Under the pieces are notes generated by a model that saw only the letters and a list, made by a program, of their open reading frames with translations, was not told the origin of the DNA and ran no database searches. Positions 7,006-64,000 of a DNA stretch of 64,000 nucleotides are shown here, in pieces. Numbering within the stretch: position 1 is the first letter of the stretch; the number at the start of each line of letters is the position of its first letter. Made by a program: the position numbers and the translations under genes. This DNA comes from Podarcis liolepis (Eukaryota): assembly GCA_965112155.1 (NCBI GenBank), contig OZ218111.1, one strand, 5' to 3'.

Positions 7006-7375
7006 TTGTTGTTGTTGTTTAGTCATTTAGTCGTGTCCGACTCTTCGTGACCCCCTGGACCAGAGCACGCCAGGCACTCCTGTCTTCCACTGCCTCCCGC
7101 AGTTTGGTCAAACTCATGTTAGTAGCTTCAAGAACACTGTCCAACCATCTCGTCCTCTGTCGTCCCCTTCTCCTTGCGCCCTCCATCTTTCCCAGCATCA
7201 GGGTCTTTTCCAGGGAGTCTTCTCTTCTCATGAGGTGGCCAAAGTATTGGAGCCTCAGCTTCAGGATCTGTCCTTCCAGTGAGCACTCAGGGCTGATTTC
7301 CTGAAGAATGGATACGTTTGATCTTCTTGCAGTCCATGGGACTCTCAAGAGTCTCCTCCAGCACCATAATTCAAA
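7006..7375 (-). mobile_element. RTE/BovB-like LINE 3' fragment with (CAA)n tail
   Basis: Translation FELWCWRRLLRVPWTARRSN...LKLRLQYFGHLMRREDSLEKTLMLGKMEG.RRRGRQRTRWLD...VTKSRTRLND is the classic BovB C-terminus. Confidence 0.92.
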
Positions 7376-8967
7376 TTGGGACAGGCAGTAAAGGCAACGG
7401 AAGTCTGAGGTTTTACAGCTGGCAGGCAGCCAAGGAGCTGGGGCAGATTCCATAGAAACAACTGTGGCTTTCAGCTGCATTACCAACTTGCACAATCTGC
7501 CCAGTCCCTCTTGCTGAACCTGCATATAAAATAAGAACCATGCTAAATCTCCAGTACTTTCTGCTCATTACAAAGTTGAACTTGTCAAACACGGAGAGGG
7601 AACCTGCAGCTCTCCATACATTGTCAGGACGCAGTTGGCAGAGCATGAGGCTCTTAATCTCTTAACACCAGGGTTGTGGGTTTGAGCCCCACATTGGGTG
7701 AAAGATTTCTGCATTGCAGGGAGTTGAACTCAGTGACCCTTGGGGTCCCTTCCAACTCTTCATTTCTATGATTCTACCTGTTCCCAGCTAGCATGGCCAG
7801 TGTCTCAGTGGGAAGGACAGCCCAACCATATCAAGAGGCCATAGGTTTCCTCTTCCTGCCATAAAAGATTTCCCCTGGAACCTCCCGCCACTTGAGCAAT
7901 GGTGGGGGGAGAAAACACACTTGACAATATGGATCAGCTCCAACTTCCTAGGCTTTAAATACCATCAGCTTCCAACTAGGGGCACAAATGGAGCATTTCT
8001 TAGAAGGCTATGGACAGACAGAGGGGCCAAACCCACAAGCATCCAGAGCCTGCTTCTCTGTTGGCCTGGACCCCAGACAGTGGACAGCCAGAAGGCCTCT
8101 CTCCCTGTCTGGTGAGCTCCTAAGCCCAGCCTTTGCCAGGCCGCAGAACATTGTTCTGACAGACCGTTTTGGAGACCGCTTATCCAGCCGCGAAGGGGGA
8201 TTTGCTGGGGAAGGCCCAGCCGTCCCTGCCAGGCAGGTGGGAGGCAGAGAGCACACCGGCTGCCTCCGGGTCCTGGGGACAGCATCCACCAGCGCGTGAT
8301 GCGTTGTGGCAGTTTCCCTGCAGCCTGGAGCCTGCCTGGAGCGAGCGCTGCTGATGTCTTTAATTGCTTTCAGATTCGATAGCCCGGCTCTTGACAGCCT
8401 CGGCTGCGCAGCTGCAGCGCTGCCAACTGTCCCCACTTAGCTAGGGACGGAGCCCCACATTCATCTCCTCTCCTGGCGGCCTTTGAAAAAAAGGAGGGAT
8501 CAAACAGGATGAGCTGCCCAGCTCCCTTTGCGAGCAGAGTAGCTCAGAGAGTTTCAGAGGCTTCTGGCCTTCAGAGGGACTCTCGTCCATCCGCAGCTGT
8601 TCAGGAGAGCCGCAAAGGAACCGGTGCTACAGAGCCTCCTCGCCTTTATGCTGTCGGTTGATACTTGTTCCCATTACAGAGGATTCTATTTGTTTATTGC
8701 ATTGATATCACTCCTCCCCTCCAAGGTGCTCAGAGTGGCGAACAGGGCTCTTCCCCCGCCTGCACTGTTTGATCTTCACAACAACCCTGTGAGGTAGGTT
8801 AGGGCTGAGAAACAGGGAATGGCCCCAAGGTCATTCGGTGAGTTCCCTGGATTAGCAGGACCTTTGTCGTTTTGTCTCTGTGGTACAGAACTCCCTTCTC
8901 TAGGGGGACCTGTCAAGCGCCCCAGAGTGGCCAACAATGCCTGTCTTCCACCCTTCTGCCCTTAACA

Positions 8968-16118: not shown

Positions 16119-16781
16119 TTTTCTTTTTTAATTAGGAATTTTAACATAACAATTTGTCAAAAACACATCATCCTCATCCCCCCCATTTTTCCCTCCCCTC
16201 ACCCCAAAATAACCCCCCTCCCACCCCCCACCCCCAGACTTCCCTCAGCTCCTCTCTCTGGTTTTTCAGCACATGTTATTCTCTGCATATTATAAAATTG
16301 TAAAGATCCTTCATTTATCTATCTATATATTACCAATAAAAAGTTTGTGTATGTTTATTCAAAACCAAATATATGTTGGAAATGTAAGGAAAAAGAAGGG
16401 ACTTTTTATCATATGTGGTGGGATTGTAGTAAAATTAAATAAATTTGGGAAATGATATACAATGAGTTGAAGAAAATGTTCCAATTAACATTTGTAAAAA
16501 AAAAACCTGAAGCATTTTTGTTAGGGATTTCAAGAAAAGACCTGCCAAGGAAATTGAAAAACATTTTCATGTACGCGACAACGGCTGCAAAGGTCTTAAT
16601 AGCACAAGGATGGAAGAACGAAGAAATCCCGACCAAAGAACTGTGGCAAGAGAAACTGATGGACTACGCGGAATTGGCGAAATTGACACACAAACTACGT
16701 GATAAGGACAACTGTGGCTTTAAAGAAGACTGGGAACCTTTTACAAAGTACTTAAAAAAACAACAAAATGAACTGGACTCT
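16119..16781. mobile_element. 5'-truncated, 5'-inverted (twin-primed) L1-clade LINE insertion
   Basis: 17-bp TSD AAAGTTCAGCACTTTTC (16102-16118 and 16782-16798). - strand 3' UTR and tail at 16119-16366; + strand ORF2 C-terminus at 16367-16781 (CWKC...H...C knuckle; KKPEAFLLG...MYATTAAK). Confidence 0.88.
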
Positions 16782-17333
16782 AAAGTTCAGCACTTTTCAA
16801 ATCTCTCAGCAGATTCTCTGGGTGAGCTCAACGCATATGCTTAAATCCTTCCCCTACTGAAATGCAACAAGATTGCAAAAGGTGCTTGATTTGGGGAGGA
16901 TGGTGGCCTGGTGGTTATTTAAAGGCATTGCTCCCCACCCCACTTGCTCATTAGTGGGGTTTTTAAAGAAGAAAAACTTTTCAATTCCCAGGGTGGCTTA
17001 CAAAATTAACACATGCATGAAAACATGAAAACAAATGTAAAGCATTTTTTAAAAAATCAAAGACACAAGAGGCATGGGCGTCACCAGGATTTATATTGCA
17101 GGGGGCAAAACCTCAGTTAGTTAAGTATTTTTATTGATTTACTTGATTTAGGTGGAGGGGGTGGATCTGCACAACATTCCAATGCCATTCTGAATCAAGA
17201 TGGCAGACCGAACCTTTCAAAATTGCAGTGATTCTAACCAGATTTCAGAATGACACTGGTTACTTTTGGTTTGCAGAATTCCTGAGCAATGCAGAGTATG
17301 AGGCATACAGACAGACAGACATATTTAGAAACT

Positions 17334-17616: not shown

Positions 17617-18242
17617 TTTTTTAAAAAAATAAAATATTTATTGAAGTTTTACAATTTTTATCAGACACAACAATACAAACAAACAAAAAGAAAAAGAAAA
17701 ACAAGTATAGTTTCAAAACCTTATTTTCTTAAAACTTACTTCCCCGACCTCCTCATACCTCCCCTTTCTGCATTCCCATTTCAGATATTATGTTCAGCAA
17801 ATCCTCACCCTTAATTTTACCCAATTGTCAAACTTTCTTTTCTTTTAACTTAATCTTTACAGCTGTACTTCACTTAATTTCAAAAACCACAACATTCTAG
17901 CACTCATTAATTTTGCAATATTTCTTAAGATAATTCTTGAATTTCTTCCAATCTTCTTCCGCCGTCTCTTTTCCCTGGTCTCGGATTCTGCCAGTCATTT
18001 CTGCCAGTCCCATATAGTCTATCACCTTCATCTGCCATTCTTCCAAGGTGGGTAGGACTTGTGTCTTCCAATACTTTGCGATGAGTATTCTTGCTGCTGT
18101 TGTGGCATACATAAAGAATGTTCTGTCTTTCTTTGACACCAATTGGCTGACAATGCCCAGGAGAAAGGCCTCTGGCTTCTTAAGAAAGGTATACTTAAAT
18201 ACCTTTTTCATTTCATTATATATCATTTCCCAGAAAGCCTTA
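17617..18242 (-). mobile_element. 5'-truncated L1-clade LINE (ORF2 C-terminus, 3' UTR and A-tail)
   Basis: ORF 17897-18226 MIYNEMKKVF...KKPEAFLLG...MYATTAARILIAKYWK, homologous to the 16.4-kb copy. 18-bp TSD TCTTTTCTTCAAATTCTT (17599-17616 and 18243-18260). Confidence 0.9.
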
Positions 18243-19049
18243 TCTTTTCTTCAAATTCTTCGGCTTTAAACCAGACTTGGACTGGATAGCCCTTCAGACA
18301 AAGGAATGTGCTCTGTAAAGTAGCTCTCCTCATCCCCTCCAATATTAAGATGAGGGGCAGTAGCTTTGGAGGCTTGGGTGGAGATAGGCAAGGGCAGCTG
18401 AGCTTCGTCTCTTCCATGCACACAACACTTAGCGCCAGATAGCCTGCAAAGGTGCAACTGGGATTTGATTGACAGGCTGACAAACGTACTGTAGCACTGA
18501 GTCCCAGGGCTGTTTTTCACTGGCCTGCTGTTGCCTCCAAACCAGGACACCCTGGGCCATCTTGGGCTCTGTGCACCATGCAAGGGGAATCAAGACGCAG
18601 AACAGGAAGCAGCCGATTCACCCAGCTCCCTTTACCAGCATTGCAGCGCCTCCCTGCAGAGAAAATTCACCTAGCTGGTAGCTGATTCTGAGAAAATGGG
18701 CGGTTGCTTGTGAAAGCTCTTATCTCTGCAAATATGGTGGGCTGGATCGTGAATTCGATGTTCCACTGATTTTTGATAAGAGGGTTAAATATATGCTGAA
18801 GAGCCTAAGAGGAGCTCTGCTGGGTAAGGACCAGGGGTCCATCTTTTTTGCAGTGGTTAATCTGATGCCTCTGGGAAGCCCACAAGCCAGGCACAAGGGC
18901 AGTGGGCCTCTTTTCCATTTGTTAGCACAAGCTGGGCAAATACATACTTAGGGTGGTGTCCAGTCCTCATCCTGCCCATAGCAGGTCCATTAAAGTTTGC
19001 ACTAACTTAGATTCAATTATTTCACTGGAAACCACATTTTGTCTACCCA

Positions 19050-45989: not shown

Positions 45990-47165
45990 GGAGAGAGAAG
46001 GCCTCCTCTATTCCTTGGCTGGAAATTTGGATGCCCTGCATGAAGGCCACCTGCTGTGCCTGCGCATTGCTCCCTCAGAAGTCTAACACGATTAAATTTC
46101 ATTTCAGGCACCCGCTTGATGCGGCTTCAATCACATAGGCCGCTCAGAAATAAAACAGCACTTGATCATTAAAGCCACCGCACAATTAGTTATTAATGAG
46201 CGTGGCGAGTGGCCTTTTCCTGAGGCTGCCAAGCGGACCCAGAGGACACCTGTTCTTGCTAATTATACAGGGTGAAATCCCGAAGTTCTTCCTTGGGCTG
46301 AGCACCCTTTCACTGCATTCTTTAAAAGAGCACCTCAGGGGTTGGATCTTTGGGTGGACTGACCCAGGGCAGAAGGAGGAATATTCCTGGTATGAACATG
46401 GATCAGTTGCTAGATAGAACTTAAACCCAATTCTCCTAAAGTGCTTTGGTATTGCTGCTTATTTCAGGGCCAGAACATCACAAAGATGACTGATCATTGA
46501 AAGCCTGCATGCCTGTTAATGACAGTGTCTCACTAGGGGCCCAGGTTCAAATCCCCACTCAGAATGGAGCCCATTGATGCCCCTTTGAGTTCCTTGGAGG
46601 AAAATGCAGAATATCAATGCAATAAATTAACAGCTCATAAGTAGGAGCAAGGAGACTAATCACTTCATGTGCTTCCTTTCCCCCTCCATCCAAAAGCTAT
46701 TAAAAGCATGAGAAGATTTGTCAAAGACAACAAATGCAGTCTGTAAATATGAAACGTGCAACTGAAAGCTAAATAACAATAACAGATACGAATAAAAAAC
46801 AATGAATGTCAGTTGATGGCGCTCAAGTATTAAAAAATGGCCAATACAGTAGGTAGTAAGCAAGACCAGATAGGGCTGCTACCCCAGCTCTCAAAGGATC
46901 TTCAAACACTCTCCTTGGTCTACCGGAGAACACGAAAATATGGAACACATGGAGATCACACACTGAAAACTCAAGAGTTTTGCCCAGTCCTCCTCTGCAC
47001 CAACTTCTAAGATTTCAAAGAGCACTGCCTATGTCTTTTCCTGCCTGTCTACTGAGTACCCACAGGTCTGGAAACTTACTTAGTATAAATAAAAAGGACT
47101 TCTCTTTTGGATACAAACTTTTCCATGGTGTAATGACAGGCAAGAGGACACTAAGAGAAACTCAC

Positions 47166-48605
47166 CTCTTGACAGAAGGAGACAATGTTTTCCCAGAGGG
47201 CTTTGGCCTCCCCTTCATCTGTCTGCCGCCGCTTCTCCACGTGCATACTCTCCCGGCGCCTGAGTGGCTTGGCGCCCTTGCGCTGCAACAGGTACCCCTG
47301 GGGAGTGTGGCAGGCGACACAGTGCTTGGCCTTGAACTCATTAAGCAGCGTGCAAGCCGGGCAAGGCCACTGGCTGGGCCTTTCTGGGGTCACAGGTGGC
47401 TGTGAGGGGAAGAGGCGGGCCACTTTGCGGGCCGAGGGGGCCTTAGAGCTGCAGGCTGGGCAGCTGCCTTTGTCTGAGCCACACTCAGGGCATTTGAGAG
47501 CCAACTCTCCCTGTGCGCCGTGTTCCTGGAAGCCATGCAGCTTGGAGGAGCCGCAGGCCTTGCACTTCTGAGAGGCTGTGGGGTTCTTCAACGTGCACTT
47601 GGAACAGGACCAGGTGGTGAAGTCGGGGCTGGATGGACCGCAGGGAGTGAAGCGCACAGAATCGCCAGTCAAGTCAATGGTGTCACTTCCCTTCTGGGAG
47701 CTACAGGCCTCGCAGGCGCCAGCTCCCGAGGTGTTGAGGAGGGAGCAGGTGCTGCACTTCCAGGGCGATGGGCTCACCTCCATTTCTTCTTCCAGCACGC
47801 TCAGCCGCTTTGTCGCCATCAGCTCCTGGAAGCGAATGGCCTTCTGCACAGGTGCTGGTGGGGAGGCCGGCTGGGAGGTCTCAGGCACCGGTGGCTGCAG
47901 CTGGGGGGGCACCTCTCGGCGGCTGCGGGGAACGGGGTTGTTTTGGAGGCCGGGGGAGAAAAGGCTAAAGCTTGGCATCTTCTGGCTCTCTTGCTCAATG
48001 GTGGCTGCACCTGGGTTGGCAATGGGATGGCTCTCGGGGTTGTCCGTAGCAACGCTGGGCTGCGGGGTGGTGGGTGCTATGTGGAAACCGGCAGGAGCAA
48101 TGACTTCAGGGACGACCAGCGCCTCTGGGGGGATCTTGGGCAGCGAGAGCTTGCGGGGGCCTCCACAGGCCGAGCACGAGTTGGCCATTGGGGTGTTGTG
48201 AAGAGTGCAGCGCTGGCAGGCCCAGCCATCCTCCAGCCCCACTTCCTCCGGGCTCTTCCCCCCAGAGTCCTCACCAGGGCTTTCGGCCTTGGGAAGTTCC
48301 TCCTTGCAGGTGCCCTTGGGCTCCACCAAGGCGGTGGGCTTTGGCAGGACTCCGTTGATGATGGGCAGCGGGGAGCCCCCGGGCCCAGGCTCAGGGGTGA
48401 AGCCACACACCTCGCAGGCCTCTTTGCCCAAGAAGTTCCGGAAGGTGCAGCGGGCGCAGGCCCATTTCTGCTCTTCTACACTGAGGCGCAGGATTTGGTT
48501 GAGGTCGGGCTTCTGACGCGGGGCCTCGCAGATGGAGCATTGGCGCTGTCCTACGGGGTTCAGGAACGTGCAGCGGGTGCAAGACCATTCCCGCACAGCG
48601 GCCAT
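47166..48605 (-). CDS. CAPN15: CAPN15/SOLH coding exon 1: N-terminal RanBP2-type zinc-finger region
   Basis: MAAVREWSCTRCTFLN... with six W-x-C-x2-C-x3-N-x6-C-x2-C motifs, ending ...KALWENIVSFCQE. Acceptor ttgcag at 48628-48629 (exon starts 48627), ATG at 48605, donor GTGAG at 47165. 1440 nt, phase 0. Confidence 0.96.
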
Positions 48606-51600
48606 AGAACCAGAAGAGTGGGTGTGGCTGCAACAGACAAGAAAGAAAGGCAACCATTACTTGACATCGTAAGACGGGAGCAGAGGGAAGTGTGCTTCCT
48701 GCTACTTACAGAATGGGGTCACCCATAGGGTGCCCATGGGGGCAAGGGTGCCCCTGAGTTCTTCTCCGAATGCCTACAATATCTCTGAAACCGCCCCTCC
48801 CCACAACAGCCCCTTGGATCATGAGGTGGTGAGGATACTTATGTTCTTCCCTTGGAAAAAATACCAGCACTTTCTCACTTCCTCTTTCAGTTCTATGCAC
48901 TTTCTAAGGCTCTGATTAATTATACTCAAGTGTCCAGAGGGGGTGGCGATCACAGCATTCATCCCAAAATCCACATGTGCCCACAGCCCTAGGAAAGTCG
49001 GCAACTCCCAACTTACAGAATGGGATCCAGACTAGATGTTCCTTTGAGATCAGGTGGCCTTCTGCATGCAAAGCATGCAACAGATCCACTTGCCTGCCAG
49101 GCCCTTGTTTCAGGGCAATTCCTGCACAGCTCTTTGCACTCATGGAACACACAGAAGCTTGCCAGGTCAATGAGGGACAAACTGGAAGCATCTGCCCTTC
49201 CTTGCCCTGCAAAGAAGCAGCAGACACAATCTCCCTTACACAAATGGCAAAATCTGCCCTGGTTAAGTCTGTACTTCTGCTTTGCCAATTCAGAGGACAA
49301 AGCAAGAGAAACCAACTACACTTTCAAGTTATCAGCTGCTCACCTTGCAAGGTAAGCAGGCTGCTACCTTACCCAACAGTAGCAGTTTTTCTTGTATGCT
49401 AACTTTTACCAGTGACGCACTTCTAAGGGTATGCTTGTAGTGGGCACGTAAACAAGTGTTGCCCTGCTTTGTTTTAGCCCCATTCTGAGAAGGAAATAGG
49501 GTAGCCACAGTCAAAGAGTACTTAAAATGCCTAGCAGCCAGCATCAAATTGTTAAAAGCCAGCCCAGCAGAAATCTGAGGACACATCAGAGCATCAAAGT
49601 ACAAATGTATAAATATCTGGGCTTGTTGGATCCCAAATTCAATAGTACTTCACATTTTCTTGGTAGTGCTAAAAAGAAGAGAGGAAGTTGCCTTGGGCAG
49701 ACTATCCATTGCAAACTATTTATATCCAAGACAAGGGCTTGGATAGTGAAAGAGTTAATCCTTGGTTCAGAATTGTCCACTCACTTTACTGTTTCTTTTG
49801 GGAAAGGGTGTAGTTCAGGGGTAGAGCACTTGTTCTGCATGTGGAAAGAAGCTTCCAGGTTCAATTCCCAGTATTTCCTGGAGGAAGTGGGAAAGATCTT
49901 CATCTGAAAACCTGAAGAGTCTCTGCCAGTCAACATAACGTAGACAATGCTAAATCGAACCAGCTGTCTGACTCACTAGAAGGCAGCTTTCAACATTTAT
50001 ATATACCACCAGGAAAATCTGCACTTAAATTTGCACAGTATGTCTCTAGAAATCAGTTTATGGGGGTCAGAAAGTGGCAATTTCCAGACTAGACTTGGCC
50101 CCTTAAGACGAGCCACTTGGCCATTAGCTATGGAAACAGCTGAAGGAGGCAAGAGAGCACAGGAAAGAGTATCTTTTTCTTCCTTGATTCTATCTCCTTG
50201 TCTCCACCTCCCCCCTCCCCTTAAGGGCTCTCGGCCAGCAAAAGTACCCATAGATAGAATGACATTTAATAGGTTTTTAGCTCTGCTTCTTCAGCGTGAG
50301 CATTAACAGAGGGGTGATTTGGGGGAGCAGCTCTCTAGGGTTTCAAGGCCTGAGTCTTTCCCAGCCTACCAGGTGATGCTAGGAATCAACAATGGGTCCT
50401 TCTGCATACTGAGGAAGGTCTATGACAGGGGAAGGTCTATGACTCTGTAGGTCCCAGGTTCGATACCCTGTATCTCCAAGTAGGACTGGAGAAAATCCCT
50501 TCTGAAACCCTGGAGACCTGCTGTCAGTCAGCCTAAACCACTGGTCAGGACTCTCTAATGGGTTCACGGCCTGATCAAGGAGGGCCACAACAGGAAAACT
50601 ACCACCATGCATATATATGGTAAAATATTAAGAAATGGGTCGCCAAATGCATGTTTGAATTAAAAGTGGGTCCTGGGTCTGGAAAGGTTGAAGATACCTG
50701 ACATAGACAATAGAGAGCTAGATGAGTCAATGGTCTGACTTGGTATAAGGCGGGTTCCTATGTTCTTGTGAGAAAGCCACACTGCTGCAAGATGCATAAG
50801 GTCGCCTGGAGTCTCCCACACCAACCATTGCAGACTTGGACTTAAAACTCCAGTGCTTTCCACAGCCTCAGCAGTGGAAATTAACTGTGTTCCCAAGAAC
50901 AACAGTCAGTGATCTGTTTGGAGGGGGCGGTGGTGAAGGGGTGAACCAGTTGTGCGCTTGGCATCAGGTTATGCAGTCTCCCACTCTTCCATTCATTTCA
51001 TCCTTCTTGTTGTCATTGCCCTTCTCCTCACTCTGCTGCTTCCACAGGACTGCTCTCCCTCCCCTCTTGTCTCCAGCTGGCCAATTATTTTTCAAGCCCT
51101 GGGTTGCTGCTGTCCTAGTTACAAGGACATCGCTGCCTGCCATGCGCACCCTGCCTGATGTCTGACTAGCAGAAAGGAAGGAATGGCAAGGGGAAGTCCC
51201 GAGATGCACACTCCACTCTGCCTTGGTTATGCTAGGACACAGTCTCAGTTTGCTTTCCTCCATCAGGGCCTAAGCCAAAGTGTGGCTAAAACATCCAGCT
51301 AACTGCAGAAGACCTAAGGACCATCAGGTGAGCCCACTGAATCAGCCTCCCCCAACTTGATCCATTGCTTTGGCCGGGTTCACGTGGAGAATAGCAAAAC
51401 AGGATCCCCCTGATTCTCTAGAGTTATTTCTGCTTGATGTCAACCATAGCTGGCAGGGTACAGCAGGAATCAAATGCTCCTGGGATTCAAACCTAACATT
51501 TTACGTCAACCTTCCCCAATCTGGGGCCCTTCCACCAGTCTCAACCAGTAAGGCTGAGGAAGTCTGTTTTACACCATTACAAACGGAAGTATTGGTGGCA

Positions 51601-59413: not shown

Positions 59414-59803
59414 TGTTGGGAAACTGCCAGGGAGATAGTGTCCATCATGAGCCCCCAAGCCGGAGTTCTGGACGATCCATCGGCCTCCCGTAGACAGGCA
59501 GATCCAGCAGTTAGCGACACGAAGCCTCTGGAAATTCCTAGCCACATTCCAGGGCTGGGTGTACACTGTTTATCAGCAGAAACACAGCCAAAAGCTTGCA
59601 CCGCAGAAGAGCATAATTTTCAGACTTTATTAGCGTTTAACAGAACAAAAGAAAACGTGACCGTTCTGTGTCAGCATCTTCGGCCAACTGAGAAAACGAA
59701 AGGAATCTCAGCAAGAACATAAACATCCTGTGACTAGGACATGCGCAGACTCTGTTACTCACAAAGCCTGCTCCCTTTAAGGTGGAACGGAAATATCCTA
59801 ACA
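59414..59803 (-). repeat. 3' LTR of the copia element (390 bp)
   Basis: On the - strand starts TGTTAGGA directly after the PPT and ends TCCCAACA (7/8 terminal inverted repeat). Internal AATAAA at 59626-59631. Adjacent candidate 5-bp TSD CTTGT at 59409-59413. Confidence 0.85.
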
Positions 59804-62800
59804 TCCTCCCCCTTTCCGTGTAACCTGTTGTACCTGTGGTTCACTCAATTGCAACCTTTGTACATAAACCTTATGTTGTTCTTTGTTAACAACCTTAGAC
59901 AACAGATCAGCAGGAATTTCATTTCCTGCCATGTAGGACACCTGAATCAGTCCTTTCTGAATACACTCTCTTGCACGATGTAGCTTAATCTGCAAGTACT
60001 TGGTTCTCTGCTTGCAACTCTCGGAGTTCAGCAAAGCCAAACACGATCTATTGTCTTGATACACTTGTATAGGACATTTCACAGACACCCTGATGTCCTT
60101 AAACAGTTGCATCAACCATTCACAATCCATGAGTGAAAATGACAGAGCATTGAGTTCTGCTTCACAGGAACTTAGGCTCACTGTTGTTTGCTTCTTGCAC
60201 AACCAGTCAAACAGGCAGTGGTTGTACATGTAGCACACACCAGAAGTGCTTGTACCATCCGTGGTGTCACTTCCAAAACTTGCATCAGCAAAGATTTCAA
60301 GACCTCCAGTCTTCTGACTGGTGAACCTCAGCCTGTAGTGCATAGTCCCTTTCAAATAGCGGGCTATGCGCTTCAGAGCTTTCCAATCCTGAACCGTAGG
60401 ATTGTTGGCATGTCTGCTAAGCAGATTACAGCTTACAGCAATGTCAGGTCTTGAACATCTGGCAATGAAATTCAGCTTGCCTAGAATGCATCTGTATAGC
60501 GTTGTGTCAGAAAACGCTTCAGCAGTACTGTCTACCTGGTAACCTGTCACCATCGGTGTGTCTGCTGGGTTTGCATCAACCAAATTCAACCTGGTTAACA
60601 CATCAGCAATTTTCTGTGTTTGGTGTACCAGAAAATTACCTGCTTGGTCCTTCTCCACCTGCAGAGAAAGATAGTTGGATACCTCACCAAGATCCTTCAT
60701 ATCAAAGTGCTCCTTCAGTTGAGCTAGGGTGCTTTGGTAAAAAGCCTGATTCTTCCAAAACATCAGAAGATCATCAACAAAACATAAACAATACAGTTTG
60801 TTTTGCCCCTCCTCCTTGACAAACACACATGGATCAGCTTTGCCCTGGTGGAAACCTAGAGAAAGCAATGTCTCAGTGAGTTTTGTGTTCCAACACCTGG
60901 CACTCTGCTTAAGACCATATAAGGATTTCCGCAGTTTACAGACCATACCCTTCTGTATCTCCATCCCATCAGGTGGAAGCATGAACAGCTCCTCCCCCAA
61001 AATCCCATACAAAAAAGCTGTATTAATGTCGTGGTGAGAAACATGCAGTTTCTCCTCCGCAGCGATCTTGAGCATCAGCCGAATGCTCTCATATTTGACT
61101 GTGGGTGAGTAGGTCTCATGGTAATCCTGTCCTGGTACCTGTGAAAAACCTCTGGCAACCAATCTGGCTTTGTGTCTGACTACCTTGCCATTCTGGTCTG
61201 TCTTGGCCTTGAAGACCCATTTGCTGCCAACCAGTCTCATTCCTGGGACTACCGGTACCAATTCCCAAGTTTGGTTCCTGTTCAAGGAATCAACTTCAGC
61301 CTTCATGGCATTAAGCCAAGGCTCAGCATCTTTAGAGGTTAACTCCTGAACCTCTTTGAAGCTTGAAGGTTCCCATACCTTCTCTGAGCTACTAAGAACA
61401 GCAGTTGCTGTCTTAGCAAACTCATCAGCATACCTCTTTGGAGGTCTGCCCTTGGTTGCCCTTTCAGACCTACGTACTAGACGCAAGTCTTCTGGACTCA
61501 TCTCCTCTTTCTTAGGAGAAAAGTGACCAATGGTGAACAGTGGTTCTTCCAGTTCATTGTCAGACGCATCAGATGGTCTGACTGAGGCTTTTGCGCTCTG
61601 GTAGTCTGCTGTGTCATCACTTTCACTGACATCAGCAGCAGCGCCGCCCACTGAACTGGAATCCGAACTCTGATCATCATCATCATCCTCATCATCATCC
61701 TCATCCTCATCATCATCAGCAGCTTCCTCAGCTTTAGCTGCTTGCTTGACATCACCTTCATCCTCCTCTGGGTAACACTGGAAAATTCCCACATTTCCCC
61801 CCCACTTAGGATTGTACTCAACACTCCTTGTGAACTTTATGGATTTAGAGTCAGTCATCCATACCCTGTATGCACCTTTTTCGTACCCCATGAACAAACC
61901 ATGTGCCCCACGCTTCCCAAGCTTGTTGGTTTGTTGTGTGCGTACCCACATGTCCGAACCAAAAATCCTCATGTGTTTGGTGTTGGGTTTCTTACCAAAC
62001 ATCTTCTCATAGGGGGTACAACCAATGGGTGATGACAATCTGCGATTAACGGTGTAAACCAAATTCCCCAGAGCCTCCCCCCAAAACTTATCAGGGAGAT
62101 TGGCATCATGCAACAAGGTTTTGATTCCTTGCAGCAATGTTTGATTTGCTCTCTCCGCAAGCCCATTCATCCATGGCGATCTGGGCGTTGACATGTCATG
62201 CTGGATTCCCTTCTCAGTCAGGAAAGCTTCAAACTGCTGAGAAGTAAACTCCCCGCCCCGATCAGTAAAAAAACAAGAAATACGTTTACCGTGCACATTC
62301 TCCAACCAAGCACAGAATTCCTTAAACTTCGGAAACGCTTGCGATTTCTGTTCGAGCAAATACACATGAATGTACCTGGAAAAAGAATCAATCAGAATCA
62401 TGAAGTACCTTGCTCCTCCTATAGAGGGCGCAAGTGGCCCAACCAGGTCCGCATGCACTAGCTGGTAGGGTTTGGAAGCCTGCCTGCTAGACACCTTGCC
62501 TTTTGGAGCAACCTTCACCTTGTTCTCTGCACAAGATACACATTTCATGTGAAATTTACAAGGTTTGATGTTCAAACCTTCAACCACCTCTGGCATCTTG
62601 GCCAGTGCCTTCCAAGAGAGGTGACCAAACCTTCGATGCGCATCGTGAATGCAACCTGCATGAAGAACTTTGTTAGTTTGTGCAACACAACAAGAATCAG
62701 CATTATTCACAGCAACAGTGTCATCATAAGTTATATGGAACAAACCATCCATAAACTTTGCATGCAAATAGTCCTCTTTGCCTTTACTGATGACACAGAC

Positions 62801-63985
62801 GCTCCTCTTGAAGGAAATCTGAAAACCACGCCCAGTAAGCTGTGGGACGCTCAACAAGTTGCTCGCCGCGCCTGGAACATATAGTACACCGCTGATGGTT
62901 GTGTGCAAACTTGCAAGTTTCACAGTCCCTTCTCCTGCAATTTGCAACGTCCTTCCATCAGCCAGGTGGATCTCACCTTCCTGTGGCTTGAAGGAGATAA
63001 AGAGATGCCTGTCCTTGGAAACGTGGCGGCTGGCACCTGAGTCCACAATAAATCTGCCTTTGGCTGTTGGAGCAGTCCTTACAGCAAGCAAACCCTTGTT
63101 CTCCAGCGGTTTGGGCTTTTGCAGCTTGCCCCCCTGCTGCTCCTGGCCAGCAGACGTGCCTTTAGCCTTTGGTGAAGCTGTGCCAGCAAACATCGCTTTG
63201 TTTTTCCCTGGCGCCGCAGGCTTTCCACCCCCCTTCTGCTTCGGGCCACCTGCAGGCTTTTTCCTCTGTTTATTTCCAGTCTTTGGACAAAACCTCTGAG
63301 TATGACCTTGGTTCCCACAGTTCCAGCACTTCACAGCTGCCAACGCTTTGGCCCCCCCTGGAGGCTGGAATGCTGTCCCACTTTGCTCCCCCTGAAGTGC
63401 ACAAGCCGACTCAGCTGCATTCCTTCTATCATATTCATTTTGCAAAGTTGCCAAGACCTTTGTAGCAGTGAGGTCTTGCGCAGGGAGGGTCGCCAGCTGA
63501 CTTGCCACGGCATGATAGCTTTCATCCAGGGAGTCCAGGATGAGAATAGCAAACAGTGACTCAGGCATATTGAAACCTCTCTGAGCCAACTCCTGTCTGA
63601 GATGCTGCAACTGCAAAACGTGGGCTCTAAGATCTTCCCCTGGCTCCAAACGCTTCCTGTGCAGCTTCCTGAAATAAAGCAACACAGACCCAGCCTCTCG
63701 TCGGAGATGACAGGCTTTAAGCCCATCCCACATCTCACGGGCAGTTGCCTTGCCAGCCAAGGTGATTAACTCTTCAGGAGCTACTGAGAGCAAAATTATC
63801 CCCATGGCTTTCGAATCCTGTGCTTTCCACTCATCTGTCACAGGGGCTGGGGGGTTCTCAGAAACAGTATTCCACACTCCAAGCCTTCTCATCTGGCCCT
63901 CACAGTACCTTGCCCAGGTCTGATAGTTGTGGCCATTCAGCTTTAGTGGACACGGAGCAGTTTCTGAGGTCTGTAAGAGATCCAT
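59798..63985 (-). CDS. Copia gag-pol polyprotein, 1395 aa, no stops or frameshifts
   Basis: Gag N-terminus LKLNGHNYQTW; CCHC knuckle CWNCGNQGHTQRFC; protease FIVDSGASRH; integrase zinc region HRRFGH...CVSC and DDE core (VHADLVGP / TDRGGEF / NGLAERAN); RT (WVFKAK, KARLVARGFSQ, LYGLKQSAR, CFVDDLL); RNase H (FADASF, SSCEAE, QDN, ADLLSK). Confidence 0.97.
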   Translation of the reverse strand: MDLLQTSETAPCPLKLNGHNYQTWARYCEGQMRRLGVWNTVSENPPAPVTDEWKAQDSKAMGIILLSVAPEELITLAGKATAREMWDGLKACHLRREAGSVLLYFRKLHRKRLEPGEDLRAHVLQLQHLRQELAQRGFNMPESLFAILILDSLDESYHAVASQLATLPAQDLTATKVLATLQNEYDRRNAAESACALQGEQSGTAFQPPGGAKALAAVKCWNCGNQGHTQRFCPKTGNKQRKKPAGGPKQKGGGKPAAPGKNKAMFAGTASPKAKGTSAGQEQQGGKLQKPKPLENKGLLAVRTAPTAKGRFIVDSGASRHVSKDRHLFISFKPQEGEIHLADGRTLQIAGEGTVKLASLHTTISGVLYVPGAASNLLSVPQLTGRGFQISFKRSVCVISKGKEDYLHAKFMDGLFHITYDDTVAVNNADSCCVAQTNKVLHAGCIHDAHRRFGHLSWKALAKMPEVVEGLNIKPCKFHMKCVSCAENKVKVAPKGKVSSRQASKPYQLVHADLVGPLAPSIGGARYFMILIDSFSRYIHVYLLEQKSQAFPKFKEFCAWLENVHGKRISCFFTDRGGEFTSQQFEAFLTEKGIQHDMSTPRSPWMNGLAERANQTLLQGIKTLLHDANLPDKFWGEALGNLVYTVNRRLSSPIGCTPYEKMFGKKPNTKHMRIFGSDMWVRTQQTNKLGKRGAHGLFMGYEKGAYRVWMTDSKSIKFTRSVEYNPKWGGNVGIFQCYPEEDEGDVKQAAKAEEAADDDEDEDDDEDDDDDQSSDSSSVGGAAADVSESDDTADYQSAKASVRPSDASDNELEEPLFTIGHFSPKKEEMSPEDLRLVRRSERATKGRPPKRYADEFAKTATAVLSSSEKVWEPSSFKEVQELTSKDAEPWLNAMKAEVDSLNRNQTWELVPVVPGMRLVGSKWVFKAKTDQNGKVVRHKARLVARGFSQVPGQDYHETYSPTVKYESIRLMLKIAAEEKLHVSHHDINTAFLYGILGEELFMLPPDGMEIQKGMVCKLRKSLYGLKQSARCWNTKLTETLLSLGFHQGKADPCVFVKEEGQNKLYCLCFVDDLLMFWKNQAFYQSTLAQLKEHFDMKDLGEVSNYLSLQVEKDQAGNFLVHQTQKIADVLTRLNLVDANPADTPMVTGYQVDSTAEAFSDTTLYRCILGKLNFIARCSRPDIAVSCNLLSRHANNPTVQDWKALKRIARYLKGTMHYRLRFTSQKTGGLEIFADASFGSDTTDGTSTSGVCYMYNHCLFDWLCKKQTTVSLSSCEAELNALSFSLMDCEWLMQLFKDIRVSVKCPIQVYQDNRSCLALLNSESCKQRTKYLQIKLHRARECIQKGLIQVSYMAGNEIPADLLSKVVNKEQHKVYVQRLQLSEPQVQQVTRKGGGC

Positions 63986-64000
63986 CTCAGCTTTTTACTT

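Follow-up and report, generated by a model that had tools for sequence, protein, structure and literature searches.

Is the intact Ty1/copia retrotransposon found upstream of the CAPN15 coding exons of Podarcis liolepis a rare, newly arrived and self-sufficient element, or part of a larger system? The stretch analysed (hereafter, the window) comprises 64,000 nucleotides and corresponds to G000:C15:18724001-18788000 in the assembly. A preliminary description had reported an uninterrupted gag-pol of 4188 nt with all catalytic motifs, a polypurine tract (PPT) and a clean LTR, and had proposed a very recent and perhaps horizontal acquisition of an element type regarded as minor in reptiles.

Structure and coding content of the window element

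The structural part of that description was confirmed, and the near-identical 5' LTR and tRNA primer site (PBS) that it anticipated were both found beyond the window. The window element is an intact Ty1/copia copy with a full Gag. It measures 5,211 bp and carries two TG...CA LTRs of 390 bp each, identical at 390/390 positions, together with a PBS and a PPT. Gag and Pol are encoded in one frame on the minus strand, from the ATG at 63985 to the stop at 59798 (1,395 codons; 4,188 nt including the stop), in which the Pfam domains follow the copia order of gag, protease barrel, integrase and RVT_2; the arrangement is that of Ty1/copia, gag-PR-IN-RT-RH with a copia-type RT. The frame also contains what we take to be the catalytic motifs CCHC, DSGA, D-D-E, FVDD and, for RNase H, D-E-D-D. 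The features are listed below (short-Gag copies are those described in the next section).

Extended coordinates 64235-64624 (beyond the window), minus strand: 5' LTR, identical to the 3' LTR
63986..64000, minus strand: end of the leader, which totals 249 nt, its remainder lying outside the window and including the PBS at extended 64217-64230
59798..63985, minus strand: gag-pol ORF, single frame, 1,395 aa
63701..63985, minus strand: Gag residues 1-95, capsid NTD, retained in diverged form in short-Gag copies
63491..63700, minus strand: Gag residues ~96-165, predicted four capsid CTD helices, removed by an in-frame deletion in the short-Gag majority
63287..63328, minus strand: CCHC zinc knuckle, missing from short-Gag copies
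62822..63052, minus strand: protease, DSGA at 63043
62141..62476, minus strand: integrase core, D-D-E
60548..61276, minus strand: reverse transcriptase RVT_2, FVDD at 60781
59894..60289, minus strand: presumed RNase H catalytic residues
59804..59817, minus strand: PPT, whose terminal GA abuts the LTR
59414..59803, minus strand: 3' LTR, 390 bp, TG...CA, containing the ORF stop, AATAAA at 59631-59626 and a pyrimidine-rich acceptor-like AG at 59688

Two Gag types within one family

Comparison of the window copy with its relatives revealed a marked discrepancy between the two halves of the reading frame. Out of 71 other aligned copies, 65 were 65-70% identical to the window copy in gag and 94-100% identical in pol, and all 65 lack the CCHC knuckle as well as ~70 residues removed by a common in-frame deletion. 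The deleted CTD segment was present in 6 of 81 sampled loci. Genome-wide, exact markers gave 35 full-Gag and 351 short-Gag matches, the short-Gag marker being carried by 64 of the 68 short copies sampled. Full-Gag copies, that of the window included, constitute a minority of about 9%, with a short to full ratio of about 10:1. Approximately 180 matches of an RT marker fell outside both gag markers; among 14 of these, 7 were short, 2 were full and 5 had no 5' part in the fetched stretch. Long frames were frequent in both types, since 17 of 20 further full copies had frames of at least 1,390 aa and 52 of 68 short copies had ORFs of at least 1,290 aa.

The full Gag aligns to the capsid protein of the Drosophila Copia virus-like particle with an offset of 5 and 23% identity. 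Its alignment-based model (pLDDT 89.6), used in place of an unusable single-sequence fold (pLDDT 42.7), had 8VVW as best structural match. Because the Copia capsid is described as an NTD at 1-90 and a CTD at 91-186 (PMC11835246) and the alignment is offset by 5, the deletion starts at the capsid domain boundary. It is predicted from the model to strip the four CTD helices from the short Gag, which covers only positions 1-88 of the 172 in the Pfam gag profile.

Two observations were made beside these counts. Locus L063 carries a recombinant gag, with a full-type N-terminus of ~13 residues followed by the short type. In addition, G000:C20 (40 Mb, 2.5% of the assembly) holds 7 of the 35 full-Gag matches (p 2.5e-5) and at least 21 of the 113 matches of the ATG primer-site form described below; it is possibly the W or another non-recombining chromosome.

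Selection and recombination

The short copies are not decaying. Of 64 examined, 61 preserve the frame from the NTD to the protease, and 20 of the 23 different lengths of this interval are in frame (4 copies unscored). In the set used for substitution analysis (4 full and 49 short copies), pN/pS among short copies stood at 0.12-0.22 across PR, IN, RT and RH, against 0.63 for the NTD and 1.8 past the deletion, a pattern of purifying selection on pol and of neutral evolution of the short Gag past the deletion. Between full and short copies dS reached ~1.2 in gag, whereas in pol it was 0.04-0.16 whichever types were compared. The short NTD retains 23 of 25 family-conserved residues versus 22 of 57 others (p 6.5e-6), and the region past the deletion retains 5 of 11 versus 25 of 44; among short copies, NTD polymorphism fell short of a significant reduction relative to neutrality (p 0.08). 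Shared ancestry links both the indel lengths and the codon counts, so that such p-values are too small. If the short allele derives from a sister family, part of the NTD conservation could be older than the deletion, and the purifying selection on pol could have been passed on from full copies by recombination. The conservation of frame nonetheless argues for translation from the short copies themselves.

On trees of LTR, leader, PR-IN and RT-RH (68 rows, 6 left out), the six full copies required 5-6 changes and never formed a clade. An older wave of copies was also recognised, with ~90% identity in pol (integrase) and 4-5 differences between a copy's own LTRs, and it contains both gag types, the full type being represented in the sample by L183 alone. 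When 22 copies from both waves were analysed, with L183 as the one full-Gag copy of the older wave, the gag tree separated the two types and the integrase tree the two waves, with support of 100 each; in the RT tree, one old copy fell among the young. Thus, two gag alleles at ~1:10 sit on a shared, recombining pol and LTR, in the young as well as in the older wave.

A proposed division between capsid builders and borrowers

Among the 79 loci examined, 19 chosen for LTR identity and 60 by position on C1-C3, both LTRs were present in 74, and 65 were clean-ended after removal of 9 with damaged ends. Identical LTRs were found in 47 of these 65 copies, mostly short-Gag, which indicates that short copies are mobile. 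The reading that we consider probable as a whole is that the short-Gag majority replicates in capsids built by the full-Gag minority, with which it recombines. A Gag lacking the CTD and the zinc knuckle would be unable to build particles or to select RNA, so that short copies would have to take their capsids from full copies. Both RNA types would be packaged together, and template switching would hold pol and LTRs in common (co-packaging and template switching are reviewed in PMC6894440), while the gag alleles, too far apart for frequent recombination, would remain distinct. More tentatively, the retained NTD may tie the short Gag-Pol into helper capsids, short copies thereby bringing their own enzymes. 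In other respects replication would resemble that of Drosophila copia, with priming by the anticodon half of the initiator tRNA, a 5-bp stagger and a left end processed by 2 nt.

Carried further, this leads to a picture that we regard as possible, though with less than even probability, in which two capsid alleles have shared one recombining backbone for many million years, one a rare complete builder and the other a common half-capsid serving as a docking tag on its own Pol. If true, it would represent a helper-cheater polymorphism maintained stably at one gene and not a pair of families.

Other arrangements of the two types have to be weighed against capsid borrowing. The occurrence of both types in two waves, the retention of pol and frame by short copies and the open frames of 17 of 20 further full copies would also fit an exchange of services, in which full copies supply mainly Gag and short copies much of the Pol, both gain, and the ratio of ~1:10 is stable; a cooperative complex has been proposed for wheat Gypsy families (PMC9744471). 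We consider this unlikely, since full copies have an intact pol of their own and need nothing from short ones. Moreover, a capsid requires much more Gag than Pol, which is the opposite of the copy ratio. Contig depth was lower over gag than over pol in all four sequencing runs compared, but this measure cannot rank gene parts and is given no weight here.

The deletion leaves a single folded capsid domain with conserved residues, and capsid-fragment restriction factors exist for Ty1; hence the short Gag might be a dominant-negative fragment that limits the family, similar to Ty1 p22 although derived from the other domain, and tolerated or favoured by the host. This is more doubtful still, because the short copies are precisely those that are spreading (351 versus 35 matches, mostly with identical LTRs) and because they keep a pol that a restriction factor does not need. 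Less probable again is autonomy of the short-Gag elements on the basis of a minimal capsid, with the two types as sister subfamilies whose only connection is recombination. This would agree with the open frames of the short type and with its young insertions, but the four CTD helices and the zinc knuckle are missing, the Gag past the deletion evolves neutrally, and Copia capsids are described as needing RNA, with CTD-CTD contacts as suspected stabilisers (PMC11835246).

Comparison with known gag-defective elements

Partnerships of the kind proposed here have been described in cereals, and the present family would extend them to a vertebrate, with an element defective in gag but competent in pol, and its helper. 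The barley elements BARE-2 and BARE-1 were reportedly treated by Tanskanen in 2007. BARE-2 is described as having a disrupted gag and otherwise intact genes, as presumably receiving Gag from an autonomous partner and as being more active than that partner (PMC9744471, PMC3977881). Tos17 of rice is presented as an active copia element with pol and no functional gag, whose primer site is common with that of its putative helper Lullaby (PMC3977881). The short copies share with both elements a disrupted gag, an intact pol and an autonomous partner with common cis signals, the primer site among them, in the same genome. They differ in not lacking a Gag product of their own, since an NTD with conserved residues is kept in frame. 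Unlike BARE-2, they reside in a vertebrate, their short gag has its conserved N-terminal capsid domain fused in frame to Pol, and their pol and LTRs are pooled with those of the helper by recombination while gag stands at dS ~1.2. In Tos17, gag is entirely gone and DNA similarity to the putative helper is given as 57% (PMC3977881), whereas the short copies of the present family retain half the capsid and are 97-98% identical to their putative helper in pol. On these structural and co-evolutionary grounds, the short type would depend on partner Gag as BARE-2 and Tos17 do.

Drosophila copia and yeast Ty5 offer parallels for the single gag-pol frame, and the former also for the Gag fold (8VVW), although Gag identity is only 23% and Drosophila copia has a spliced gag mRNA, whereas the present family is known from DNA alone. 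With the Mtanga-clade copia of squamates (PMC11889832) and the corn-snake OCA2 insertion (PMC4657000) the family has in common that it is abundant, recently active and intronic. The former study classifies elements by RT/RNase H and the latter deals with one insertion, while gag types are compared here. The main text of PMC11889832 contains no words beginning with "autonomous" or "PBS", and no gag-deleted vertebrate copia appeared in the titles and abstract openings of the literature searched (mostly non-subscription and without Repbase); the supplement of PMC11889832 may include the family.

An intact copia in a squamate is ordinary; the two-gag structure of the family is not. Hundreds of dated copies make it possible to measure capsid borrowing, how helper and borrower recombine, and the proportion in which the two persist. 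If short copies depend on full ones, a tally of long open frames overstates the number of autonomous elements in this family several-fold.

Size, age and origin of the family

The exact RT marker matched the genome 567 times, which sets a minimum family size, and exact markers also recovered 367 junctions between LTR and primer site and 986 LTR starts without the preceding PPT pattern. The rarity in reptiles assumed earlier does not hold, in view of at least 567 RT copies here and of the report of copia in 23 of 24 squamates, with record copy numbers and all of the Mtanga clade, the only copia clade reported for Lepidosauria (PMC11889832). Birds and mammals are described as lacking copia (PMC4350176), and amelanism of the corn snake has been attributed to an intronic copia insertion in OCA2 (PMC4657000). 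Solo LTRs were 71-88% identical, which points to long residence. Six organism labels carry the window stretch or part of it; labels A, B, E and F have contigs across pol, and near-identical pieces of full-type gag were found in A, B and F.

The RT phylogeny suggested as a test of horizontal origin pointed to squamates. In a tree of 28 rows the window element grouped with an Elgaria sequence and one unnamed protein (SH-aLRT 99), and every named non-squamate RT in that set was at most 46% identical. The nearest named Gag relatives (32-41%) belong to Podarcis, Zootoca and Rhineura, a pseudoscorpion protein at 27% also being among them. For RT-RNase H, the closest match reached 70% (unnamed) and the rest at most 61%, barring an unnamed fragment of 286 aa, P0121, with 98% identity and no host on record. 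Neither a near-identical element in a distant host nor an absence of old copies in the recipient was observed. Hence, of the earlier proposal, the very recent insertion stands, on account of identical LTRs and empty sites, while recent horizontal acquisition is opposed by old solo LTRs, the older wave and squamate relatives. That this is a lone copia family, acquired recently and horizontally in an amniote, is the least probable of the alternatives and largely refuted as regards recent transfer, an ancient one being possible, because, although no close full-length relative was found (P0121 being a fragment), it must contend with the diverged solo LTRs, the older wave (~90% identity in pol), the presence in this genome of a second, distantly related copia family, the six organism labels, the nearest named relatives in Podarcis, Zootoca, Rhineura and Elgaria, and the commonness of copia in squamates (PMC11889832). 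The element is thus neither rare nor newly acquired, and is a member of a long-resident squamate copia family.

The second copia family was encountered at L123-L130, L132-L134 and L137. It shows ~29% identity over Gag-PR-IN and has a primer site of ~30 nt to the same tRNA half. Separately, public gene models of Zootoca and Rhineura (P0352, P0355, P0357 and P0014), named as an uncharacterised protein, FAM168A, zinc-finger proteins and ATG10, include copia Gag or Pol sequence and represent either annotation chimeras or exonised insertions.

Primer site and its tRNA

The PBS at extended 64217-64230 is complementary to nt 26-39 of the tRNA-Met(CAT) gene, at 12 of 14 positions in the window copy (TCG form) and at 14 of 14 in an ATG form. 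A match of the PBS to a tRNA 3' end was sought and not found. The site pairs with the anticodon arm of the initiator tRNA-Met, as in the anticodon-loop priming described for Drosophila copia and Ty5 (PMC10886601, PMC11835246). The perfect ATG form was present in 113 of 367 primer sites, and the others were mostly TCG (64 among the first 100 matches listed of 367); in contrast to copia and Ty5, therefore, about two thirds of copies, the window copy included, carry two mismatches opposite the anticodon.

The ATG type is scattered over the family, requiring 15-18 changes for 19 ATG copies on the trees, and it is unlinked to the flanking haplotype, the nearest neighbour being of the same type in 35 of 67 cases (shuffle mean 39.5). 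In the older wave it was found in 0 of 6 copies. An aberrant locus, L096:617-680, has its LTR followed by a tRNA-Met complement of 31 nt (gene nt 9-39) and, after that, by an LTR end in inverted orientation, and is best read as a trace of plus-strand synthesis through the tRNA half followed by fold-back. Since the type is scattered and L096 displays 31 nt of tRNA copying, the ATG form probably arises repeatedly by copying of the tRNA primer. No tRNA variant matching the TCG site was seen, CAT being present in 99 of 100 matches listed among 141 matches of a tRNA-half pattern, which include tRNA genes. That TCG is kept to remove an upstream ATG is a weak explanation, as the leader has two other ATGs.

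Target duplications and end processing

Perfect 5-bp target duplications flanked 53 of the 65 clean-ended copies. In 5 of the remaining 12 (L052, L075, L083, L090 and L118), three matching bases were accompanied by GA, the end of the PPT, beside the left LTR. An independent set picked for its GA flank (L138-L157, n=20) showed this pattern in 11 of 16 scorable copies, the other five comprising 4 perfect duplications and 1 different flank pair; the 4 unscorable copies had no LTR end. Right-end counterparts with AC were found at L058 and L121. The GA pattern, present in about 4% of insertions, likely reflects a 2-nt overhang from integrase end processing that was ligated and not trimmed. LTR starts preceded by GA numbered 63 of 986 genome-wide, no more than 1 in 16, and are therefore not evidence alone; the paired flanks are. 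In the wheat study, such duplications are described only as error-prone (PMC9744471). Junctions and primer sites of this kind would record end processing and tRNA copying in the genome itself, in a form that needs no experiments to be read.

The window insertion and its position relative to CAPN15

The 5-mer duplication predicted for the window copy (CTTGT) was not found, its flanks being AAAAC and ACAAG, with no 5-bp duplication. In four of six other public runs (X4, X5, X9 and X11; labels C, A, E and F), a contig tracks the flank to L031:915 and continues for 120-574 letters that do not fit the LTR, which is read as the empty site. Runs X1 and X3 gave no such record, X1 being uninformative there as it has no cover at L031:863-904. 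Among the empty-site runs, one shares its species label with the best holder. Because the LTRs are identical and the site is empty in 4 of 6 runs, the insertion is very young and not fixed. Six overlap models were compared with the empty-site contigs over the letters available, up to 915; a 2-bp duplication alone agreed throughout, from which we infer a 2-bp target duplication. Replacement of the duplication by the whole right-end overhang was rejected, since it predicts a first mismatch at 910 and 916 was observed.

The neighbouring gene is represented by the following feature.

47151..48627, minus strand: first coding exon of CAPN15, with ATG at 48605 and a splice acceptor 22 nt upstream of it; exon 3' end unmapped

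Identity over this exon was 88% for Elgaria and Python, 84% for Anolis and at most 79% for turtles and birds, squamates being best. The acceptor 22 nt before the ATG implies that the transcript starts further up. As noted previously, there is no CpG island upstream in 48.7-59.4 kb; one that is not repetitive was located at about 124.6-125.8 kb (extended coordinates). Further out, at 142 kb, the CAPN15 strand carries an exon encoding a FIP domain, which belongs to the upstream gene, presumably as the end of RAB11FIP3, judging from name and synteny. The acceptor, the distant island and the FIP exon support the earlier placement of the element, which probably sits in the 5'-UTR intron of CAPN15 in sense orientation. 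The acceptor-like AG of the LTR lies 57 nt before AATAAA and has its 5' LTR equivalent at extended coordinate 64509; AG and AATAAA could form a terminal exon of CAPN15 transcripts.

GC- and CpG-rich tandem arrays that mimic CpG islands occur upstream of the element at extended 67.9-69.5 and 73.4-74.5 kb (L031, L032), both within the probable CAPN15 5' intron. Elsewhere in the window, the segments 7019-7564, 16443-16844 and 17897-18250 resemble what we take to be ends of non-LTR retrotransposon ORFs.
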